64,000 bases of DNA from Naegleria gruberi. Its lineage: Eukaryota. Location: the NCBI GenBank assembly GCA_000004985.1, contig GG738883.1; one strand, 5' to 3'. Shown in pieces: positions 29,817 to 38,831 of the stretch. Below the pieces are notes generated by a model, which was not told the origin of the DNA, searched no databases, and worked only from the letters and a program-made list of their open reading frames with translations. The translations under genes and the position numbers were made by a program. The first letter of the stretch is position 1, and the number at the start of each line of letters is the position of its first letter.

Positions 29817-32441
29817 ATGAACAATCGACAACTTCCCTCCAATTTTAACTTTTACGGGGAGACAACAACAGACTATCCCTCTGATTTTAATATGACAACA
29901 AATTTATTTGATGATTTTCTTGCTTCTTTAACTGAAACACATCTACTCACGGATAGTAATGTAAATACAAACAATAGCATGCTCCTTCCGCATAATGTAT
30001 CTTCTAATTTAATACCAACAACATCATCAACAAGTACATCATCATCGTCGACAATGTTGCCACCAATAACGGCACAAGATCTAACCGGTACTACATCTTC
30101 ACAAAACGATTCAAATTCTGGTCAACTTGTTACAAACGTTTCTCTAATTACAAATAATCAAAAATATCCATCAGGAATAATTCAAGATAATGTACATTTG
30201 TTTTTTGGTTCTCATGGTTCTTCAGATACATATAAATTGGAAGTTCAGGTAACGCCAATTGTTGATCAAATGATAATGAGTAATCAAACTAAACTTGTCA
30301 TACAAGTTAAAAGAGAAAATAGCAAGGAACTTTTGAAGAAGGCTCGTTGGGTATTGTCTTTGGAGAATAGAAAAGAAGAATGTATTTATCTCGTTCAAAA
30401 TAATAATTTTCCAAAAACAAGAAGAGGAAGAGGTATTAACGAATCTTGTTTATTTGCCTTCTCTCTGGAAAATTTACAAAATGTTCCTGAACAATTATTT
30501 CCAACATTTAAATTTCAATTTTACTCCAAGCTCATACCAGGAAGTTTCCCAACAGATTCGTTCACTGTTCCACCATCAACACAACTTTCTAGGCCAGAAG
30601 TATCCACATCCTCATCATCACCACCTACACAACAAATCATTTCCAATCCACCTATGATAGTAATGGAACAACCAAAACCTGTTATGAATAATATTCTCTT
30701 CCCAGCTTCTGCCTTTAATCAGTCAACCCAATCCTTTGATCCTATGTCACTTTTTAACTCTCTTACCGAACAATCCCAACAACAATCAGATGATCTAATT
30801 TATCAATCTTCAGGAAAAAAGAGGAAAAAGATAGAAATCTTTGAACCAAAGTTATTCTCAATCAATCCAATGTATGGAACTATTGGAAGCACTGTTGTTT
30901 TATTGGGCAATTTTAACGTTTTAAGTGAAAAAGCAGTCAAGGTCCATTTTGATCAAGTTGTTGTTGAGCATCCACATGCCGTTACGCCAAATACTATTGT
31001 TTGTACTGCTCCTGATCATGAAGATGGTAACTCTTTTGTTCAAGTTGTAGAAGAATTTGAACACTTCCAAATGAAAACTGAGCACAAAATTTTCAGATAT
31101 ATTTCACAAAGCTTCCAAATGGGTATCAACCAACTCGTCTTTAATTCAGGCCCAAGACCTTACCAATCACCACCTTCATATCTTTCTCCTGGAGCTCCAA
31201 ACACTGACTCATCTTCTAGTTCTAACTCTTATAACTCAGGGCAAATGTTTTATGATAGTCTTAGACAAAATAATTTACATAGAGCAGCTTATGATGGTGA
31301 TTTGAGGGCTGTTGTTTCAATTCTTGAAAGCAGATCATGTGATCCATTTGAATTGGACAATTTTAAGAGAAGTCCATTCCACATTGCTTGTGCTATGGGT
31401 CACTTATCAGTTGTTCAAGCATTATGGACTCATATTGTTGATATTCTTCCTGAAGAAGAGGATGAAGATGAAGACGTACTTGCATCTGTTCTCTTATATC
31501 AACAGGATAGTTTCTCAATGACACCTCTCGATTTAGCTTCAAAGATTATAGACGACAATGAACATGATGTTATTTTCTTCCTTAAAGACAAATTAGTCAC
31601 CTATCCAAACTTGAATACAAAGCTAGGTAATGGTGATCTAGTTCTAGTAGAAAACGAGGTACACGAACGTAAACTAAATCAATTGAAGCACTTATTCCCA
31701 TCCTTTGACGATTTCTTCATTAGAGAAATTCTTGAGAGATGTGGTTGGAGTGAGACAGAAGCTGCTGCTTTGGTTTTATGCCAACAATTTGAATCCAATA
31801 TCTGTGCCAAATCATCTATGACTTCTAAGGAAGTTTTCATGGTAATAGAGAAACAAAAGGCCATCAATCAACTCATTGATTTTATGAACATGTCTCCCTT
31901 CTCAACACTTTTAGCAAACAAACTTTCTAGATTCTTTGATCCAGAGAAGCATTTCGAAAATTATGAAAAGGAAATCAAACACAAGTTTTCTAAAAAGATT
32001 TACAAGATTGAAAACATTGTTCATCCCGAGCTTCAACTCAGATTCAGCCAATATATCAATCAAGAAGAAAACCCACTGATATTTATGACATTCCACGGAA
32101 CAAGTGAACAAAATGTTTCTAGTATTAAGGAACACGGTCTCTTGGTTCCTGGAAAGGGTAATGATATTAGACCAGTTAATGGTAGCGAGTATGGATTGGG
32201 TATTTACACATCATTCTCGGGTACTTCATCAATTGAGTATTGTTATGGTGGTAACAAGATGTTTGTTTGTGCTGTGTGCGTTAGGGACAAGATTGTTATA
32301 AGTGAAGATGGAAATGTTCTTGTTGTTTTTGATGAAAGATCAGTATTGCCTTGCTGGCTGATAACATTTGAAAACCGAGTTGAAAATGTTCAAGAACCTG
32401 TCAATATGAACTATAACAATAACCTTCTCAGACAAATCTAA
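29817..32441 (+). CDS. multidomain PARP-family protein (874 aa), gene A. An S/T-rich N-terminal region is followed by IPT/TIG, ankyrin repeats, a CUE domain and a C-terminal PARP catalytic-like domain.
   Basis: TIG domain: PKLFSINPMYGTIGSTVVLLGNF...IVCTAPDHEDG. ANK: LHRAAYDGDLRAVVSILE...SPFHIACAMGHLSVVQAL. CUE: LNQLKHLFPSFDDFFIREILERCGWSETEAAALVL. PARP-like: FHGTSEQNVSSIKEHGL...YGLGIYTSFSGTSSIEY...VLVVFDE. Confidence 0.75.
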   Translation: MNNRQLPSNFNFYGETTTDYPSDFNMTTNLFDDFLASLTETHLLTDSNVNTNNSMLLPHNVSSNLIPTTSSTSTSSSSTMLPPITAQDLTGTTSSQNDSNSGQLVTNVSLITNNQKYPSGIIQDNVHLFFGSHGSSDTYKLEVQVTPIVDQMIMSNQTKLVIQVKRENSKELLKKARWVLSLENRKEECIYLVQNNNFPKTRRGRGINESCLFAFSLENLQNVPEQLFPTFKFQFYSKLIPGSFPTDSFTVPPSTQLSRPEVSTSSSSPPTQQIISNPPMIVMEQPKPVMNNILFPASAFNQSTQSFDPMSLFNSLTEQSQQQSDDLIYQSSGKKRKKIEIFEPKLFSINPMYGTIGSTVVLLGNFNVLSEKAVKVHFDQVVVEHPHAVTPNTIVCTAPDHEDGNSFVQVVEEFEHFQMKTEHKIFRYISQSFQMGINQLVFNSGPRPYQSPPSYLSPGAPNTDSSSSSNSYNSGQMFYDSLRQNNLHRAAYDGDLRAVVSILESRSCDPFELDNFKRSPFHIACAMGHLSVVQALWTHIVDILPEEEDEDEDVLASVLLYQQDSFSMTPLDLASKIIDDNEHDVIFFLKDKLVTYPNLNTKLGNGDLVLVENEVHERKLNQLKHLFPSFDDFFIREILERCGWSETEAAALVLCQQFESNICAKSSMTSKEVFMVIEKQKAINQLIDFMNMSPFSTLLANKLSRFFDPEKHFENYEKEIKHKFSKKIYKIENIVHPELQLRFSQYINQEENPLIFMTFHGTSEQNVSSIKEHGLLVPGKGNDIRPVNGSEYGLGIYTSFSGTSSIEYCYGGNKMFVCAVCVRDKIVISEDGNVLVVFDERSVLPCWLITFENRVENVQEPVNMNYNNNLLRQI

Positions 32442-32770
32442 TTGTAAAATATAATTAAACAAAAGTTTATTCCATTGATCAATGGTTCATTTTCATAATA
32501 ATAATCAGTTGCTTCAGCTTTGTAATAAGCATACTTCATTTCCAATTGAATTTCGTCATTATCATCCCTTGTAGCATAGAGTTTAAATTGACCTTTGTAA
32601 CTACATTGTGGCACCTCTAACAGCTCCAAAGAGATTCATCACACCTGCACATTTAGAAACGAGTACCTTTGGTGATTATTTCTTTAAATTCTTTGGTGAG
32701 AACCTTCTGGCCGTTGCGTTCCATATTGGATAGTTCTAAATTTGATTGGTGGAATTAATTCTCCTCTTAA
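32438..32770 (-). pseudogene. 3' fragment (last ~110 codons) of a third paralog of the secreted Cys-rich (MACPF-like) family. It abuts and overlaps the stop codon of gene A.
   Basis: 32418..32670 matches 37226..37570 at >90% nucleotide identity, apart from a 95-bp indel. 32680..32760 matches 37843..37950 with deletions. The minus-strand reading ...LEVPQCSYKGQFKLYATRDDNDEIQLEMKYAYYKAEATDYYYENEP is homologous to the C-terminus of the 14278..15912 protein (...VYGCRSAAVRLFVSRNWQDEIQVSVVYSFIDD). Confidence 0.6.
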
Positions 32771-33119
32771 TGTGAAATTTCTAACATTTTTCAATTATCA
32801 TCATTTCACCATTTTCACCCATATCAATTTTATTCATATTCAATACATCTTTGTATTCGGTTCCATCATGTGGATTGGCGCCAAAATTGATAATGAAACC
32901 TTAATCAAAAAAAAATGCTCAAACATGATCACACCATGCGCTTTATTCTCTCATTGTTCAATGACGGAGATGAATTTGTTTATTTAAAAAATTAGCAATG
33001 GTGAGAAATAGTATCTGAATTTGGTGGGAATTCTAATAATTTATTACTTTGGTTAAATCGTGATGAATGGTGACCAACATTGATCCAGCTGTCAGCATTT
33101 CTAGATTCTTCATAAAAAA

Positions 33120-36100
33120 ATGGCAGATTTTCAGAAGGCGTTTTATGCTGCGAGAGACGGCAAAATTGATGAATTTAATAATTATTTTAATGAACAAGAT
33201 GTTAATAATAAATCACAGTATGGTCAAACCATGTTGTGGGTTGCTTGCTTCAACGGACATTTAGAAATTGTTAAATTATTATTATCATGTAAAACAATTG
33301 ATGTTAATTTGGGAGTAAGTATTTAATATTTAATGTAATTTTATATTTATAATATTAGAATGTAAGTATTTAATATTATTTTTATTTATATTTATAATAT
33401 TAGAGAGTAAGTATTTTAATATTTAATTTTATTTATAATATTAGGATGTAAGTATTTAATATTTAATTTTATTTATATATTTAATATTAGTCACCATTAT
33501 ACACTGCTTGCCAAAATGGACATTTAGAAATTGTTAAATTATTATTATCATGTAAAACAATTGATGTTAATTTGACTGTAAGTTTAATATTTAATGTAAT
33601 TTTATATTTATAATATTAGGATGTAAGTATTTAATATTTAATATTATTTATATTTATAATAATAGTATGTAAGCATTTTAATATTTAATATTATTTATAT
33701 TTATAATATTAGAGAGTAAGTATTTAATATTTAATTTAATTTTATACTTTTAATTAGGATGTAAGTTAAATATTAAATATTATTTATATTTATAATATTA
33801 GTATGTAAGTATTTTAATATTAATTTTATTTATATATATAATATTAGTCACCATTATACATTGCTTGCCGATATGGATATTTAGAAATTATTAAACAATT
33901 ACTTCAACATCCAAATATTGAAATAGATAGCACATTGTCAGTGAATGGAATTAATATTCAAACAATTAAAAGTAACATGGAAAAAGAACAACAACAAATA
34001 TTAAAAGAACAATTAGAACAAGAAGAGTTTAAACAACTAGAAGTGGAAAGATTAGAAAGAGACAGAATTAAAAAATTAGAAATGGAAAGATTAGAAAGAG
34101 AAAGAATTGAAAAGGAACATTTACTAAAAATAGAAAGAGAAAGATTAGAACGAAAAGAATTGGAGAAAAAACAACCATTCATAATCACATCTGAAACATT
34201 TTCAAAATTATGTTCACTCAACCAACAAATTGATAATAATAGAAGAAAAATTGAAAAACAATTTGAATCAATTCAATCATTTTTTTCTTCTATTCAAATT
34301 AAGAAAGAATTTGAAGATGAATATTTAACAATTTGTGATAATTTAAATAATTGTTGTAATTTAATTGACAAATTAACAAGTAATAATTATAATATTGAAA
34401 ATAACGAACATTTGTTAAATATTAATAATTTGATGAATAATATTAGAACTATATTGGAATTTATTAATAATCAAAAATACTTATTTAAATTACAATCTTA
34501 TTCAGAAGTATTAAAAGACAAATTACAATTATTTAATGAATTTAATTCTCAATTTATTAAACAAGAATTATTTGACAATATTGAAATGAGTGAACAATCT
34601 ATTAAGAATATAAAAAGTATTAATATAGTTCCAACTCATAATAAATTTAGAAATGAAACTAAAACAACATTACAACAAGTTACAAAACAATTATCAAATA
34701 TTGTTAACTCAATCAATAATTGTAATGAAATTGATTTGTCACAATTTTCAAATAATTTACAAAAAGCAATGGAATTATCAGAACAAGAAGAATTATATTT
34801 AAATAATATATTGTCAAATTGTAAAGTATTAATTTCAGACAATGATCAAATGAATATTTTACAATTATTTAATTTTTATCAAACACAAGAATTAAATTGT
34901 AAATTATTAATTCAAGAAACAATTCCATATATAATTGAAAAATATGAAATGTTACAAAATATTATAAATATTATGGATGATTATTCAAATTTATCAGAAC
35001 AATTTAAAACTATTCAAAGACAAAAAACAAAAATTACAAGAAATTTACATATTGTAAATCTAGATATTGAAGGATTAAAAGATGAATTGAAACATGTCAA
35101 TAATGACGATGAAATTAAAGATGAAATTCAAACTAAAGAAAAGAATTTAATTGAATTAAAATCTAATTTGAAGGAAAATATTCAAAAGTTAAATGAAATT
35201 AAAATGAAATTTCTTCAATTAAAAACAATTGGATTTGATATTAAATCAAACATGACAAGTGATTTATTATCTAATTTAAATATTAATGAAATGACACCTG
35301 AAATGTTTAAAGAAATTAAACCAATTCAAAATTGGAATGGAAATCATAATGTTTTTATTGGAATTGATTTAAATGATAAAAAACATATAATTAAACAATA
35401 TAATTTAAAAGATAAGAAATCAATTGAAGGTTTAGAAAAGGAATTGAAAATAACAAACAAATTAAAGCACGCAAATATTATTGAAATTGAAGGAATTTAC
35501 ACTGAAGCTGATAACAAACACAGTACCACTAATGTATTTATTGTAATGCCATATTATTCAAATGGAAATTTGAAAGAATTTATTCAAACTAAAAGAAATC
35601 ATCAAAGTAATACTTTAAATTTATTATTTTGGGAAAGAACATGGAGACAATTATTAATTGGAATTCAACATGTACATTCCAGAGGTGTTATTCATTGTGA
35701 TATAAAACCAGAGAATATATTTGTTGGTGATAAAGATGAATCAACAGAATATTATCCAATTATTTTAGGTGATTTTGATATTAGTTTAGATATAACAAGT
35801 AGAACAATGAATTTATTCACAAGAACAAGTGGAATTGCTGGTACATTAGATTATTTATCACCTGAACTAGTGAATGGAAAAACATCAGCAACATTTAGAT
35901 CTGACATGTTTGCATTTGGTAAAACAATTCAAAATTGTATGACAGATCAAGAATTGAAACAATTCAAATCATTGAATAATTTATGTGAAGAGTGTTTGAA
36001 TTCAGATGTAAATTTGAGACCATTTGCATCTGATGCACTTGCAAATGAATTCTTTATGAAAGAAACATTATTAGATGAAGTTAAAATTCAGAAACATGTT

Positions 36101-37113
36101 CAATTAATCGAAAATCAATCAAAAGAATTGAAAGATTATCACAATCAATTGAATGAATTTGAATTGAAAATGAAAAAAAATCATGAAAATTTGAAAACTG
36201 AAATTTTAAATCTAGAAAAGGAAAAGAAACAATTTTCAAATTCAAAGCAAAGGAAAACGAAGAAATTTCAAAGAAATTACAAAATTTGAAACAAAAAGAA
36301 ATTGAAATTGAGAAAATGGAAAAGGAAATTAAAGAATCAAAATCCAAACAATTAACAATATCACTTCCAGGTTATTGGAAAAGAAACACATTCCCAAGCT
36401 ATTCGAAAAGATATTACACTGTTGATGTTACACAATATTTAAAAGATACAATGCAAGAAATTATGAATGCATCCTGTAATTCTGCAACACTTGGATCTGG
36501 AAGAGATCAAGTATCAAGAATTATGTATTCTAAATTGATTGTTTCCAGTGTTTCAAGAATTGAAAATTCAACACTTTTCACTTCATTCAAATCAAGAATG
36601 AATCAGTTAATTTCATATCAAGATTCAATTAATTCACTCCAAGTTCAGACTGAAAATATTTCAAAAACATCAAAAACATTTGAATGGATGAAAACAATTG
36701 GATTGAATTCTAATATGAATGAAAAATATTTATGGCATGGAACAAAACCTGAATTTGTGAATACAATTGCAGAACATGGATTCGATGAAAGAGTTGCAAA
36801 TTTAAATGGATTATTTGGAGCAGGTATTTATTTTGCAGAATATTGTTCAAAGAGTGATCAATATTGTACGCCTGATCATTCCAATGAATTTACTCTATTA
36901 TTATGTAGAGTTGTAATGGGAAGACAAATTCATTTCACAAAACAAGTGATGAATAATCAGAGAAGACCACCTGAAATTTCAGGAAGTAATAATAGAGTTT
37001 ATGATAGTGTTATTGGTCAATCAAATACTTCAACTAATTCATATAGAGAATTCATTGTCTATGATAAATGTCAATGTTATCCTGAATTTATAATTAAATA
37101 CAAGAGACAATAA
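33120..37113 (+). CDS. gene B: ankyrin repeats + long coiled coil + Ser/Thr protein kinase domain + coiled coil + PARP catalytic domain. Exons are 33120..33314, 33491..33577 and 33848..36289, with introns 33315..33490 and 33578..33847. There is a single-base frame break near 36254-36257, after which the ORF continues to 37113.
   Basis: AAAAAAATG start. Exon-1 ANK: MLWVACFNGHLEIVKLLLSCKTIDVNLG|GTAAGT. Exon 2: SPLYTACQNGHLEIVKLLLSCKTIDVNLT. Exon 3: SPLYIACRYGYLEIIKQLL..., in frame with ORF 33935..36289. Kinase motifs: HCDIKPENIF, GDFDIS, GTLDYLSPE. PARP motifs: LWHGTKPEFV, GAGIYFAEY, YREFIVYD (an H-Y-E triad). Restoring one A in the A-run at 36254-36257 joins the kinase ORF to the PARP ORF through a continuous coiled coil (...SNSKQKENEEISKKLQNLKQKEIEIEKMEKE...). 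Confidence 0.7.
33315..33490 (+). repeat. intron 1 of gene B: a tandem array of about 4 mini-intron-like units of ~45 bp each (GTAAGTATTTAATATT...TTTATAATATTAG)
   Basis: Direct reading shows repeated GTAAGT...ATATTAG units separated by 3-4 nt. Confidence 0.8.
33578..33847 (+). repeat. intron 2 of gene B: a tandem array of about 6 mini-intron-like units of ~45 bp each. The flanking exons 2 and 3 are diverged duplicates of the exon-1 ankyrin cassette.
   Basis: As above. In addition, 33262..33314 and 33521..33577 are nearly identical at the nucleotide level. Confidence 0.8.
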
Positions 37114-37342
37114 GGAATCAATCAAAGAATTACCAATTTCACTCCCGATGTGAGAATTAGTTATAGAAACCTGTTGTAGAGATTACTACCATAAATCAGT
37201 AACTCTCAGGATCCGGACTATTGCAATAACCTTCTCAGACAACTCTAAATATAATTAAAACAAAAGTTTATTCCATTAAGTAAGGACATGAGCACTCATG
37301 TTTACAACAATACAACCACCTTCCTTTCTCTTTTCACTTACA

Positions 37343-38831
37343 TTACATGCTTTCCTCTTGGTAGACATAATTTGGTTCATTTTCATAATAATAATCAGTT
37401 GTTGCTTCAGATTTGTAATAAGCATACTTCATTTCCAATTGAATTTCGTCATTATCATCCCTTGTAGCATAGAGTTTAAATTGACCTTTGTAACTACATT
37501 GTGGCACCTCTAACAGCTCCAAAGAGATTCACCACACCTTGCACATTTAGAAACGAGTACCTTTGGTGTGCTACTTCTTCTAATCATGATATCTTTGTAA
37601 TAAGAATAGTGCATGCAGGTCTTTGACTTCCTGACTTGCAACGAATTCCATTCTTTCCAGCTCGGCAAATATTTTGTGAAAAATCTTGATATCCACATGG
37701 ACTTTGTTGTAAGAAAACTTTCAATAGAATTGGTTGAGATGTTTGTTTGGTTATCATATTTTCTATTCTTTGAATTCTTCTTTCCTTTTTAGCAACAGAT
37801 TTTTCCATGCACTTTTTGTAGGCGATTTTAAGATTTCTTCTTTGATGAGAACCGTCTGGCATTGCTTCCCATATTGGAATAGTTCTAAATTTGATTGGTG
37901 AAGGATTTTTCACAAAAGATGTAATTCTCCTCTTAATGTGTGAAATTTCTGGATTTCCTCCAATAATATCTCTGGCAGCAATCTTTGAATATTTCAAAAA
38001 AGTTGCTAGAATTGGGAGATTTTCAGTTGAGTTTGTTGATTGAATGAAGTTTTGCAGCATAACTAACAGCTTTCTCTCTCGAATAACAAGATCTGGTAAT
38101 ACTGGTTTGTCCAACAATTCCTCCATAATAAGTTTGAGTCATGACTCTTTCTCCAAAATACTTAATAACCATACTATAAACAGAATAAGAATATTTCGCT
38201 GGTAATCTGTGGAAATTTCTCTGAAATTCATCACTGAATGTTAAATTTCTATGACTTCCAACTGAATAATACATATATTTGGTATCAATGGAATGAATTA
38301 AAGTCTCAGATTTGAAAAGTTTGTGATAGGTTTGAGAAGCACTTTCAAAAGTATCTGAATATAATGTGGCCGTCAATGTGCTTGCATTAAAGTTATAGAA
38401 ATGATTGTAGAACCTTCTTGGACTTTTGAATTGTTTATCCTTTGTGTCCACAATTGGAGTTTCCAAAACTTTAACATAGATTTGAGAACTTGTAATTTAA
38501 CTTCATGATCCAAAACTGAGTATCCATAACCTGAAATGATGTTGGACAAATCAACGGCTGGAGCTGAAGAAACTTTCTTGGATTTTGTTAGAGAATTCAA
38601 TGCCATTTCTTCCACTTTTATCGAGCAAACATGTTTCATTTGTTTAATTCTCTTCTTAATCTTTGGACATGTCTTAATGAGAGCATTATTGAGCATATCA
38701 TACCAATTAATAAGGAGCATGGTGCAAGATTTAATTAAACTCCCTGGTGGAAAGATTCTAGTCAGGAACAATGAACTTTGTTTGTACCTTTGTAAATTTA
38801 AAAATAAAAAATTCCAACTGTAAAAAAACAA
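37343..38831 (-). pseudogene. second paralog of the secreted Cys-rich (MACPF-like) family. It is colinear with the 14278..15912 protein but split into 5 reading-frame segments. It has no signal-peptide exon, so it is either a pseudogene or an intact gene obscured by homopolymer miscalls.
   Basis: Segment by segment, the ORFs 38831-38373, 38466-38023, 38126-37584 and 37698-37510 and the terminal exon to 37343 align to the intact paralog. Matching blocks include SGYGYSVLDHEVKLQVL, FYNHFYNFNASTLTATLYSDT, YYGGIVGQTSI, FLKYSKIAARDIIGGNPEIS, IMIRRSSTPKVLVSKC and DEIQLEMKYAYY. Each of the four frame changes is repaired by +/-1 nt in a 3-4 nt A or T run (near 38485, 38045, 37600 and 37545) without any length change in the alignment. 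Confidence 0.6.

Follow-up and report, generated by a model that had tools for sequence, protein, structure and literature searches.

Ankyrin repeats, a protein kinase and a PARP domain in two frames at a Naegleria gruberi locus, and a protist family of kinase-PARP proteins

In a window of 64,000 nucleotides (nt) from Naegleria gruberi (contig GG738883.1, assembly GCA_000004985.1) we analysed the locus NAEGRDRAFT_70343 (GenBank XP_002674588 / EFC41844), which encodes ankyrin repeats (Ank), a serine/threonine protein kinase and a PARP catalytic domain, the last of these in a different reading frame. GenBank labels the product 'predicted protein; non-specific serine/threonine protein kinase', and its model terminates at the TGA at 36287-36289, leaving the PARP open reading frame (ORF), 36286-37113, unannotated. 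The locus belongs with a family of proteins in which a kinase is followed by a PARP domain, and this family, rather than the damaged N. gruberi copy, is the main finding. Homologues are referred to by P numbers: P0003 and P0007 are N. gruberi paralogues, P0002 and P0029 are from N. fowleri, P0004 is a metagenomic fragment and P0008 comes from a GC-rich eukaryote. The gene consists of the following parts:

33120-33314, plus strand: exon 1, with the start codon and the first ankyrin repeat; an ATG-initiated ORF, 100% identical to amino acids 1-65 of XP_002674588 and inside the Ank_2/Ank Pfam matches.
33315-33490, plus strand: intron array 1, four tandem GTAAG...TAG units of 38-44 nt with the 3-nt spacers AAT, AGA and GAT, which GenBank reads as N-R-D micro-exons.
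33491-33577, plus strand: exon 2, with the second ankyrin repeat; 100% identical to amino acids 69-97 of XP_002674588 and, in its DNA, 91% identical to the end of exon 1.
33578-33847, plus strand: intron array 2, six tandem intron-like units with the 3-nt spacers GAT, TAT, AGA, GAT and TAT, read by GenBank as D-Y-R-D-Y.
33848-35290, plus strand: start of exon 3, with the third ankyrin repeat, a coil rich in E, R and K (~33960-34170) and a family-conserved all-helical region; supported by the ORF, by alignment with P0003, P0029, P0006, P0007 and P0008, and by AlphaFold.
35291-36049, plus strand: serine/threonine protein kinase domain, non-RD, with HCD, DFD, SPE and G-N-H-N-V in place of the Gly-rich loop; supported by Pfam Pkinase, PDB matches, the fold of the model and family conservation.
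36050-36345, plus strand: coiled-coil linker between kinase and PARP, which holds the frame break; K/E/L-rich in composition, aligning gap-free after a one-base correction.
36223-36257, plus strand: zone of the one-base deficit, where frame 2 gives way to frame 1 among several short A runs; located by tblastn, by three-frame translation and by direct reading of the sequence.
36287-36289, plus strand: TGA closing the kinase ORF as assembled; end of XP_002674588.
36346-37113, plus strand: complete PARP/ARTD catalytic domain (LPGYWK...RIEN...LWHGT...GAGIYFAE...REFIVYD) with an H-Y-E triad and the stop codon; supported by Pfam PARP, by alignment with tankyrase-1 and PARP12, and by an open frame of 275 codons.

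The exons at 33120-33314, at 33491-33577 and from 33848 onwards are 100% identical to XP_002674588. The original prediction, made from the sequence alone, had placed the ATG at 33120, both ends of exon 2, the end of exon 1, the start of exon 3 and the TAA at 37111-37113 correctly; both interruptions that it had described as two introns are real, yet each is an array of tandem intron-like units. The frame of exon 3 is open from 33848 to the TGA at 36287-36289, and the kinase ORF (33935-36289) and the PARP ORF, with its first in-frame ATG at 36316 and its TAA at 37111-37113, lie in different frames. Joining the three exons and adding one base after 36257 gave the frame-corrected model that was submitted to the Pfam search. 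Its product comprises 1182 amino acids, or 1190 if the 3-nt micro-exons of GenBank are counted, instead of the ~1250 initially estimated. XP_002674588 also splices out an in-frame open 'intron' of 381 nt (34617-34997); since the removed stretch aligns with the coding sequence of paralogues and orthologues, this intron is probably an annotation artefact. The public annotation shortens NAEGRDRAFT_70343 and leaves a complete PARP domain unannotated.

All three domain types scored above the curated Pfam cut-offs, so the profile search proposed for Pkinase, PARP and Ank came out in favour of each call: Ank_2 with 95 bits (E 3e-27, cut-off 27.3), Pkinase (PF00069) with 103.5 bits (E 1.6e-29, cut-off 31.7) at amino acids 603-797, corresponding to 35372-35956, and PARP (PF00644) with 83 bits (E 2.7e-23, cut-off 26.7) at amino acids 1025-1180. 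From the N-terminus, three ankyrin repeats are followed by a charged coil, a family-specific helical region, the non-RD serine/threonine kinase, a coiled-coil linker of ~100 amino acids and the PARP domain with H-Y-E. Judged by sequence, the protein belongs to the kinase superfamily as well as to the PARP superfamily, and the corresponding activities are predicted.

Between the ankyrin repeats and the kinase, where a coiled coil of ~350 amino acids had been proposed, we predict ~450 amino acids of helices, of which the E/R/K-rich charged coil forms the first part and the family-conserved helical region the remainder. Amino acids 40-446 of P0003 match 34094-35293 by tblastn. AlphaFold modelled the region ahead of the kinase (33848-35290) entirely as helices, with a predicted local distance difference test score (pLDDT) of ~70, and the helical and kinase parts together (pLDDT 67) as a kinase fold preceded by a region made up of helices only. 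A Foldseek search with the latter model returned kinase matches of a generic kind and zero fold matches to the helical region.

The kinase carries the core motifs that had been read from the sequence, namely HCDIKPENIF, DFD (as GDFD) and GTLDYLSPE. Its beta3 Lys (HIIKQY), alphaC Glu (EKELK), HxD Asp and catalytic-loop Asn (HCDIKPEN) and DFx Asp are all present and align with the family and with PDB kinases. A Gly-rich loop of the form GxGxxG is absent, as had been noted; N-G-N-H-N-V stands there, and the Pkinase match begins at profile position 23, for which reasons ATP binding is only putative. PDB kinases were matched with E values down to 2e-16, the best being the uncharacterised MAPKK-like 9gmp, followed by GCN2, NEK1 and ULK; PKR and RIPK1 (5e-13) were also found. 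The PARP domain matched 92 PARP chains of the PDB at E<=1e-3, including tankyrase-1 (3e-17), PARP12 (1e-15), PARP15 (2e-12) and PARP14 (5e-9). Its H-Y-E triad is intact, as predicted, and corresponds one-to-one to the tankyrase-1 positions: H in LWHGT/LFHGS, Y in GAGIYFAE/GAGIYFAE and E in YREFIVY/YAEYVIY.

Uninterrupted ORFs with a kinase followed by PARP were found in the N. gruberi paralogue D2V8J6 (P0007, NAEGRDRAFT_47537) and in P0008, and the succession of kinase C-lobe, coiled coil and PARP is continuous in P0002/P0029 of N. fowleri and in the metagenomic fragment P0004. A phmmer search with the 500-amino-acid kinase-PARP module of P0008 against 1.84 billion representatives yielded 269 matches at E<=1e-30, and at least 32 of the best 150 match in a single stretch over both domains. 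The family comprises at least 34 clusters (at 50% identity) from several eukaryotic supergroups, D2V8J6 and 33 others having the kinase ahead of PARP in an uninterrupted ORF, and PF00069 and PF00644 were both present in all 34 members that we aligned. Named members are the diplonemids Rhynchopus euleeides and Lacrimia lanifica, the choanoflagellates Bicosta minor, Salpingoeca punica and Hartaetosiga gracilis, as well as Apiculatamorpha spiralis, a cercozoan, and Rigifila ramosa. All of these are transcriptome-derived ORFs, and therefore the fusion exists on a single assembled transcript in those organisms. The N-terminal parts differ between members (Ank, LRR, WWE, FYVE, DUF4116), and the signatures shared by the family are HCD, DFD, G-x-H-x-V, LPxYWK...RIEN and H-Y-E, with PARP at the extreme C-terminus. 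The N. gruberi locus carries every one of these signatures and groups with P0029, P0003, P0004, P0007 and P0008 at 33-50% identity.

Among the 34 aligned members, the kinase residues are conserved as follows: the beta3 Lys in 28/30, the alphaC Glu in 27/30, the catalytic Asp of HxD in 30/34, the catalytic-loop Asn in 33/34 and the DFx Asp in 30/34. Of the PARP triad, His is kept in 32/34, Tyr in 34/34 and Glu in 33/33. Immediately ahead of the catalytic Asp, 21 members have Cys and only 2 have Arg, which makes the family non-RD; 25 members have DFD, and G-x-H-x-V is the family consensus in place of the Gly loop. Going by these residue counts, both chemistries are evidently under selection, and the kinase-then-PARP order on one chain is maintained by it. 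Such selection on both active sites supports a bifunctional enzyme. When P0008 was modelled with AlphaFold using the family alignment, the helical, kinase and PARP parts were all confident (pLDDT 81.6, predicted template modelling score 0.66).

P0008 itself has a diplonemid, Rhynchopus, as its closest named relative (52% identity). On its contig (ERZ25333236 ctg611; L003 5732-8667) the helical-kinase-PARP ORF is immediately preceded by a short Ank ORF, which points to an Ank-kinase-PARP order like that of N. gruberi; several Ank-rich ORFs follow downstream.

At the N. gruberi locus both frames are open over ~36207-36289. With tblastn of the paralogue P0003 the high-scoring segment pair in frame 2 ends at 36253 and that in frame 1 starts at 36223, and one added base renders the linker gap-free and equal in length to the linkers of P0029, P0003 and P0004. 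The homopolymer correction proposed for 36254-36257 is hence right in restoring the linker with one base, while its site is narrowed only to ~36223-36257, where any of the A runs may lack the base. The kinase and PARP ORFs are not open by chance, because the other frames are full of stops (77 and 121 for the kinase ORF, 16 and 31 for the PARP ORF), and the probabilities of being open amount to ~5e-39 and ~5e-12. GC content at third codon positions (GC3) is low in both ORFs (kinase 0.12, PARP 0.15; neighbouring genes 0.21-0.33), as expected if they are one gene. A chance adjacency of two unrelated genes is ruled out by the uninterrupted homologues, by the frame switch inside a conserved linker and by the common GC3. 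Reading the sequence directly, we found no GT dinucleotide in 36207-36289, and therefore no canonical intron can restore the frame; an intron of this type over the break is ruled out. Taken as sequence, the two ORFs are the halves of one ancestral gene, parted by a one-base deficit in the coiled-coil linker. The prediction of a single gene accordingly stands for the ancestral state of the three domains, but the ORF is broken as assembled.

According to our preferred reading, to which we assign a probability of about 0.82, NAEGRDRAFT_70343 is a member of a conserved, uncharacterised protist family with a kinase followed by PARP, and derives from one continuous gene in which a single missing linker base (~36223-36257) has put PARP out of frame. 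Several observations weigh against it. As assembled, the locus has a stop at 36287-36289, where the public annotation also ends, and it does not have both domains in one uninterrupted frame. No independent sequence across the break was found: searches for exact copies of the GenBank product XP_002674588 (P0001) and of the PARP ORF in two versions came back empty, metagenome contigs scanned with an exact 26-mer and at the protein level held no sequence over the break, and a collection of 15 billion proteins held no called protein near-identical to the PARP ORF. Within N. gruberi, the kinase is lost in the paralogue P0003, which NCBI names 'TCCD-inducible-PARP-like', and degenerate in P0007 (HGN, DGFD), a pseudokinase. 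In FDP41_002169, the N. fowleri orthologue, the frame shifts within the catalytic loop of the kinase, between HCDIKPEN and F (CCAGAAAATTTTTATTGA). This frameshift is the same in two assemblies, GCA_008403515.1 and ERZ2098899 (L001 6340-6400, L002 9960-10020), and therefore real decay occurs in the Naegleria subfamily; the N. fowleri gene model skips the catalytic loop, and the ERZ2098899 contig shows an additional change of TCA to TAA further upstream. It has to be kept in mind, too, that the functional coupling of the two enzymes and a role in stress or defence, as discussed below, are inferred.

As to the origin of the break, we lean slightly towards an assembly error or a heterozygous allele over a recent real lesion, because the rest of the ~1180 codons, in DNA of 20-28% GC, is undamaged. 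If an A run was miscalled in the Sanger draft, the gene would be intact in the organism and would give one Ank-kinase-PARP protein of ~1190 amino acids, an account that we put close to an even chance. There is only one lesion in ~3.5 kb of coding DNA, it lies among short A runs, and both ORFs are clean although random sequence of the same composition would produce ~9-11% stops per codon position. The family-conserved catalytic motifs of kinase and PARP are all kept, with no conserved residue lost downstream of the break. However, runs of 3-4 bases are rarely miscounted in Sanger assemblies, and the orthologue in N. fowleri does carry a genuine frameshift.

It is possible, with the odds clearly against it, that the frameshift is real here as well; the gene would then be either a pseudogene of very recent date or a null allele in a rapidly evolving family that has undergone lineage-specific expansion. 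The stop stands in the deposited assembly and its annotation, the N. fowleri orthologue is broken in its catalytic loop in both assemblies and further damaged by TCA to TAA in one, and the paralogues have lost (P0003) or degraded (P0007) their kinases; moreover, the gene lies within a segment of 4.5 kb that has an atypical composition and looks recently inserted (see below). Yet with neither a second disabling mutation nor a loss of conserved residues downstream, the lesion would have to be extremely recent.

It is conceivable, though unlikely and less parsimonious, that the gene has undergone fission and now yields both a functional Ank-coil-kinase protein that stops at 36289 and a separate functional PARP initiated at ATG 36316. 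Only 30 nt lie between this ATG and LPGYWK, where the conserved catalytic domain starts; the complete domain would hence be made from an intact ORF, and relatives of the family place the PARP module on other N-terminal parts, as in P0005 (ricin-B) and P0003 (without a kinase). What speaks against fission is that the two ORFs overlap by 4 nt (36286-36289), with no promoter or intergenic spacer, and that frame 1 upstream of ATG 36316 still encodes the conserved linker. That ribosomes bridge the break by a programmed -1 frameshift, or that an unconventional intron does so, is very improbable: both frames are open for ~80 nt, but 36207-36289 holds neither a GT nor a slippery heptamer of the type X XXY YYZ, on the second of which grounds the programmed frameshift was set aside, relatives manage without such a device at this position, and the N. 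fowleri break sits elsewhere and has a different sign.

The two intron arrays (33315-33490 and 33578-33847) consist of four and six GTAAG...TAG units of 38-44 nt each, separated by exactly 3 nt; other candidate introns within the window measure at least ~90 nt. They look like intron multiplication via tandem duplication of a unit of one intron plus one codon. The 3-nt micro-exons may be real, because the ankyrin repeats are spaced by 32 and 34 amino acids with them and by 29 without them, the canonical spacing being 33.

A direct repeat of ~265-350 bp, with a core of ~190 bp that is ~98% identical between the copies, brackets a gene-bearing segment of 4.54 kb (32675-37216):

32408-32674, no strand assigned: left copy of the direct repeat, with the 3' end of the upstream gene A and a truncated 3' exon copy of a minus-strand gene.
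37217-37568, no strand assigned: right copy of the direct repeat, which holds an additional 89 nt (37279-37367).

The repeat consists of the overlapping 3' ends of two convergent genes, so that the 4.54-kb segment gives the impression of having been inserted recently, with duplication of a long target. The gene inside it is more AT-rich than its neighbours (GC 0.20-0.28, with the GC3 difference given above); as regards a viral origin, it has no relative among IMG/VR contigs. Flanking genes are ordinary eukaryotic ones, encoding HSP90, DP, a cyclic-nucleotide-gated channel, an LRR protein and RNase III. Directly upstream, at 29817-32441 on the plus strand, lies the gene for another protein with a PARP domain, which gave matches to TIG/IPT, Ank, CUE and PARP, the last being partial and showing, by eye, Val at the third triad position (H-Y-V); two unrelated PARP genes (29817-32441 and 33120-37113) thus stand side by side. 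In N. fowleri the upstream neighbour of FDP41_002169 is an ADP-ribosylglycohydrolase gene, so that a writer adjoins an eraser, whereas no such neighbour occurs among the flanking genes in the N. gruberi window.

Among known systems, the closest in architecture are the uncharacterised kinase-PARP proteins in the databases (D2V8J6, A0A6A5C1K6, which is N. fowleri FDP41_002169, and the transcriptome ORFs), which have the same module of a kinase and a C-terminal PARP with the same signatures; the closer relatives also share the helical region ahead of the kinase. The N. gruberi copy differs from them in its three additional N-terminal ankyrin repeats and its broken frame, and the coiled coil of ~100 amino acids between the enzymes is found only in the Naegleria subgroup of the family.

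Tankyrase (PARP5a/b) likewise has Ank repeats N-terminal to a C-terminal H-Y-E PARP domain, and no PDB entry matches the PARP domain better than tankyrase-1. Tankyrases have five ankyrin repeat clusters; the N. gruberi protein has only three Ank repeats and no SAM match in Pfam, and its PARP domain is set apart from the repeats by a kinase and long helical stretches. Tankyrase-1 has a Cys/His-containing insertion, which we take to be its zinc-binding insertion, and this is a gap in the alignment. On account of the three repeats, the missing SAM domain and this gap, an identity with tankyrase was ruled out. In common with tankyrase, the protein showed no helical regulatory domain of the PARP1 type. 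Combinations of Ank and PARP have arisen independently several times (Perina et al. 2014, PMC4245714).

The second-best PDB matches of the PARP domain are the clade-3 mono-ADP-ribosyltransferases (PARP12, PARP14, PARP15, TiPARP-like), and the PARP14 match starts at query residue 83, reaching into the conserved stretch ahead of the Pfam PARP match. Human members of this clade have H-Y-I/L/Y triads and WWE, zinc-finger or macro domains; in contrast, the N. gruberi protein retains the Glu and is without WWE, zinc-finger and macro domains. Two N. gruberi proteins with a C-terminal PARP and 'with no known N-terminal domains' were described as fitting no clade (Citarelli et al. 2010, PMC2964712). 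On the kinase side, HCD in place of HRD is shared with the non-RD kinases of the IRAK/RIPK type, and RIPK1 is among the PDB matches. DFD instead of DFG also occurs in MNK1/2. The similarity to IRAK/RIPK and MNK is generic, however. G-x-H-x-V takes the place of the Gly-rich loop, and there is no death domain or other accessory domain of RIPK/IRAK.

ADP-ribosyl transfer and a second modification chemistry are also found on one chain in the fungal PARP6-like proteins fused to an E2 ubiquitin-conjugating domain, as described in a preprint (bioRxiv 10.64898/2026.07.25.740670); these differ from the kinase-PARP proteins in using ubiquitin conjugation rather than phosphorylation, and in PARP clade and lineage. 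Neither Citarelli et al. 2010 (PMC2964712) nor Perina et al. 2014 (PMC4245714) mentions a kinase fusion, and our full-text literature search found no paper describing one. Database entries with this architecture exist under automatically assigned names only, for example UniRef100_D2V8J6 and A0A6A5C1K6. The original prediction had not recognised the architecture from characterised proteins; this holds for the literature searched, yet with at least 34 clusters the N. gruberi protein is by no means singular.

By analogy with tankyrase, the ankyrin repeats may recruit partners, and the charged coil and helical regions may serve as spacers or for oligomerisation. Kinase and PARP would then act as a coupled 'dual writer', placing phosphate and ADP-ribose onto the same partners or onto each other. 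A variable N-terminal part joined to a conserved effector module of two enzymes would suit stress or defence signalling. Non-RD kinases and PARP domains resembling those of PARP12/14/15 are also reminiscent of proteins in stress and defence signalling. Extending this tentatively, at somewhat below even odds, the kinase-PARP proteins may constitute a conserved class of bifunctional enzymes, dual writers that have gone undescribed and occur in Discoba, choanoflagellates, Cercozoa and CRuMs. The class is marked by the unusual G-x-H-x-V loop, and its phosphorylation and ADP-ribosylation would be mechanistically coupled, for instance via priming, via competition for the same Ser/acidic sites or via mutual autoregulation. 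Which pathway the module serves would depend on the variable N-terminal domains (Ank, LRR, WWE, FYVE, DUF4116), and the N. gruberi copy would be intact, its PARP half having been missed by annotation.

Phosphorylation and ADP-ribosylation are usually linked via separate enzymes. A family whose members, over several supergroups, combine a kinase that looks active with an H-Y-E PARP in the same polypeptide offers a natural system for cross-talk between the two modifications. Its choanoflagellate members bring the kinase-PARP family near the animals, and the fusion widens the catalogue of PARP architectures.

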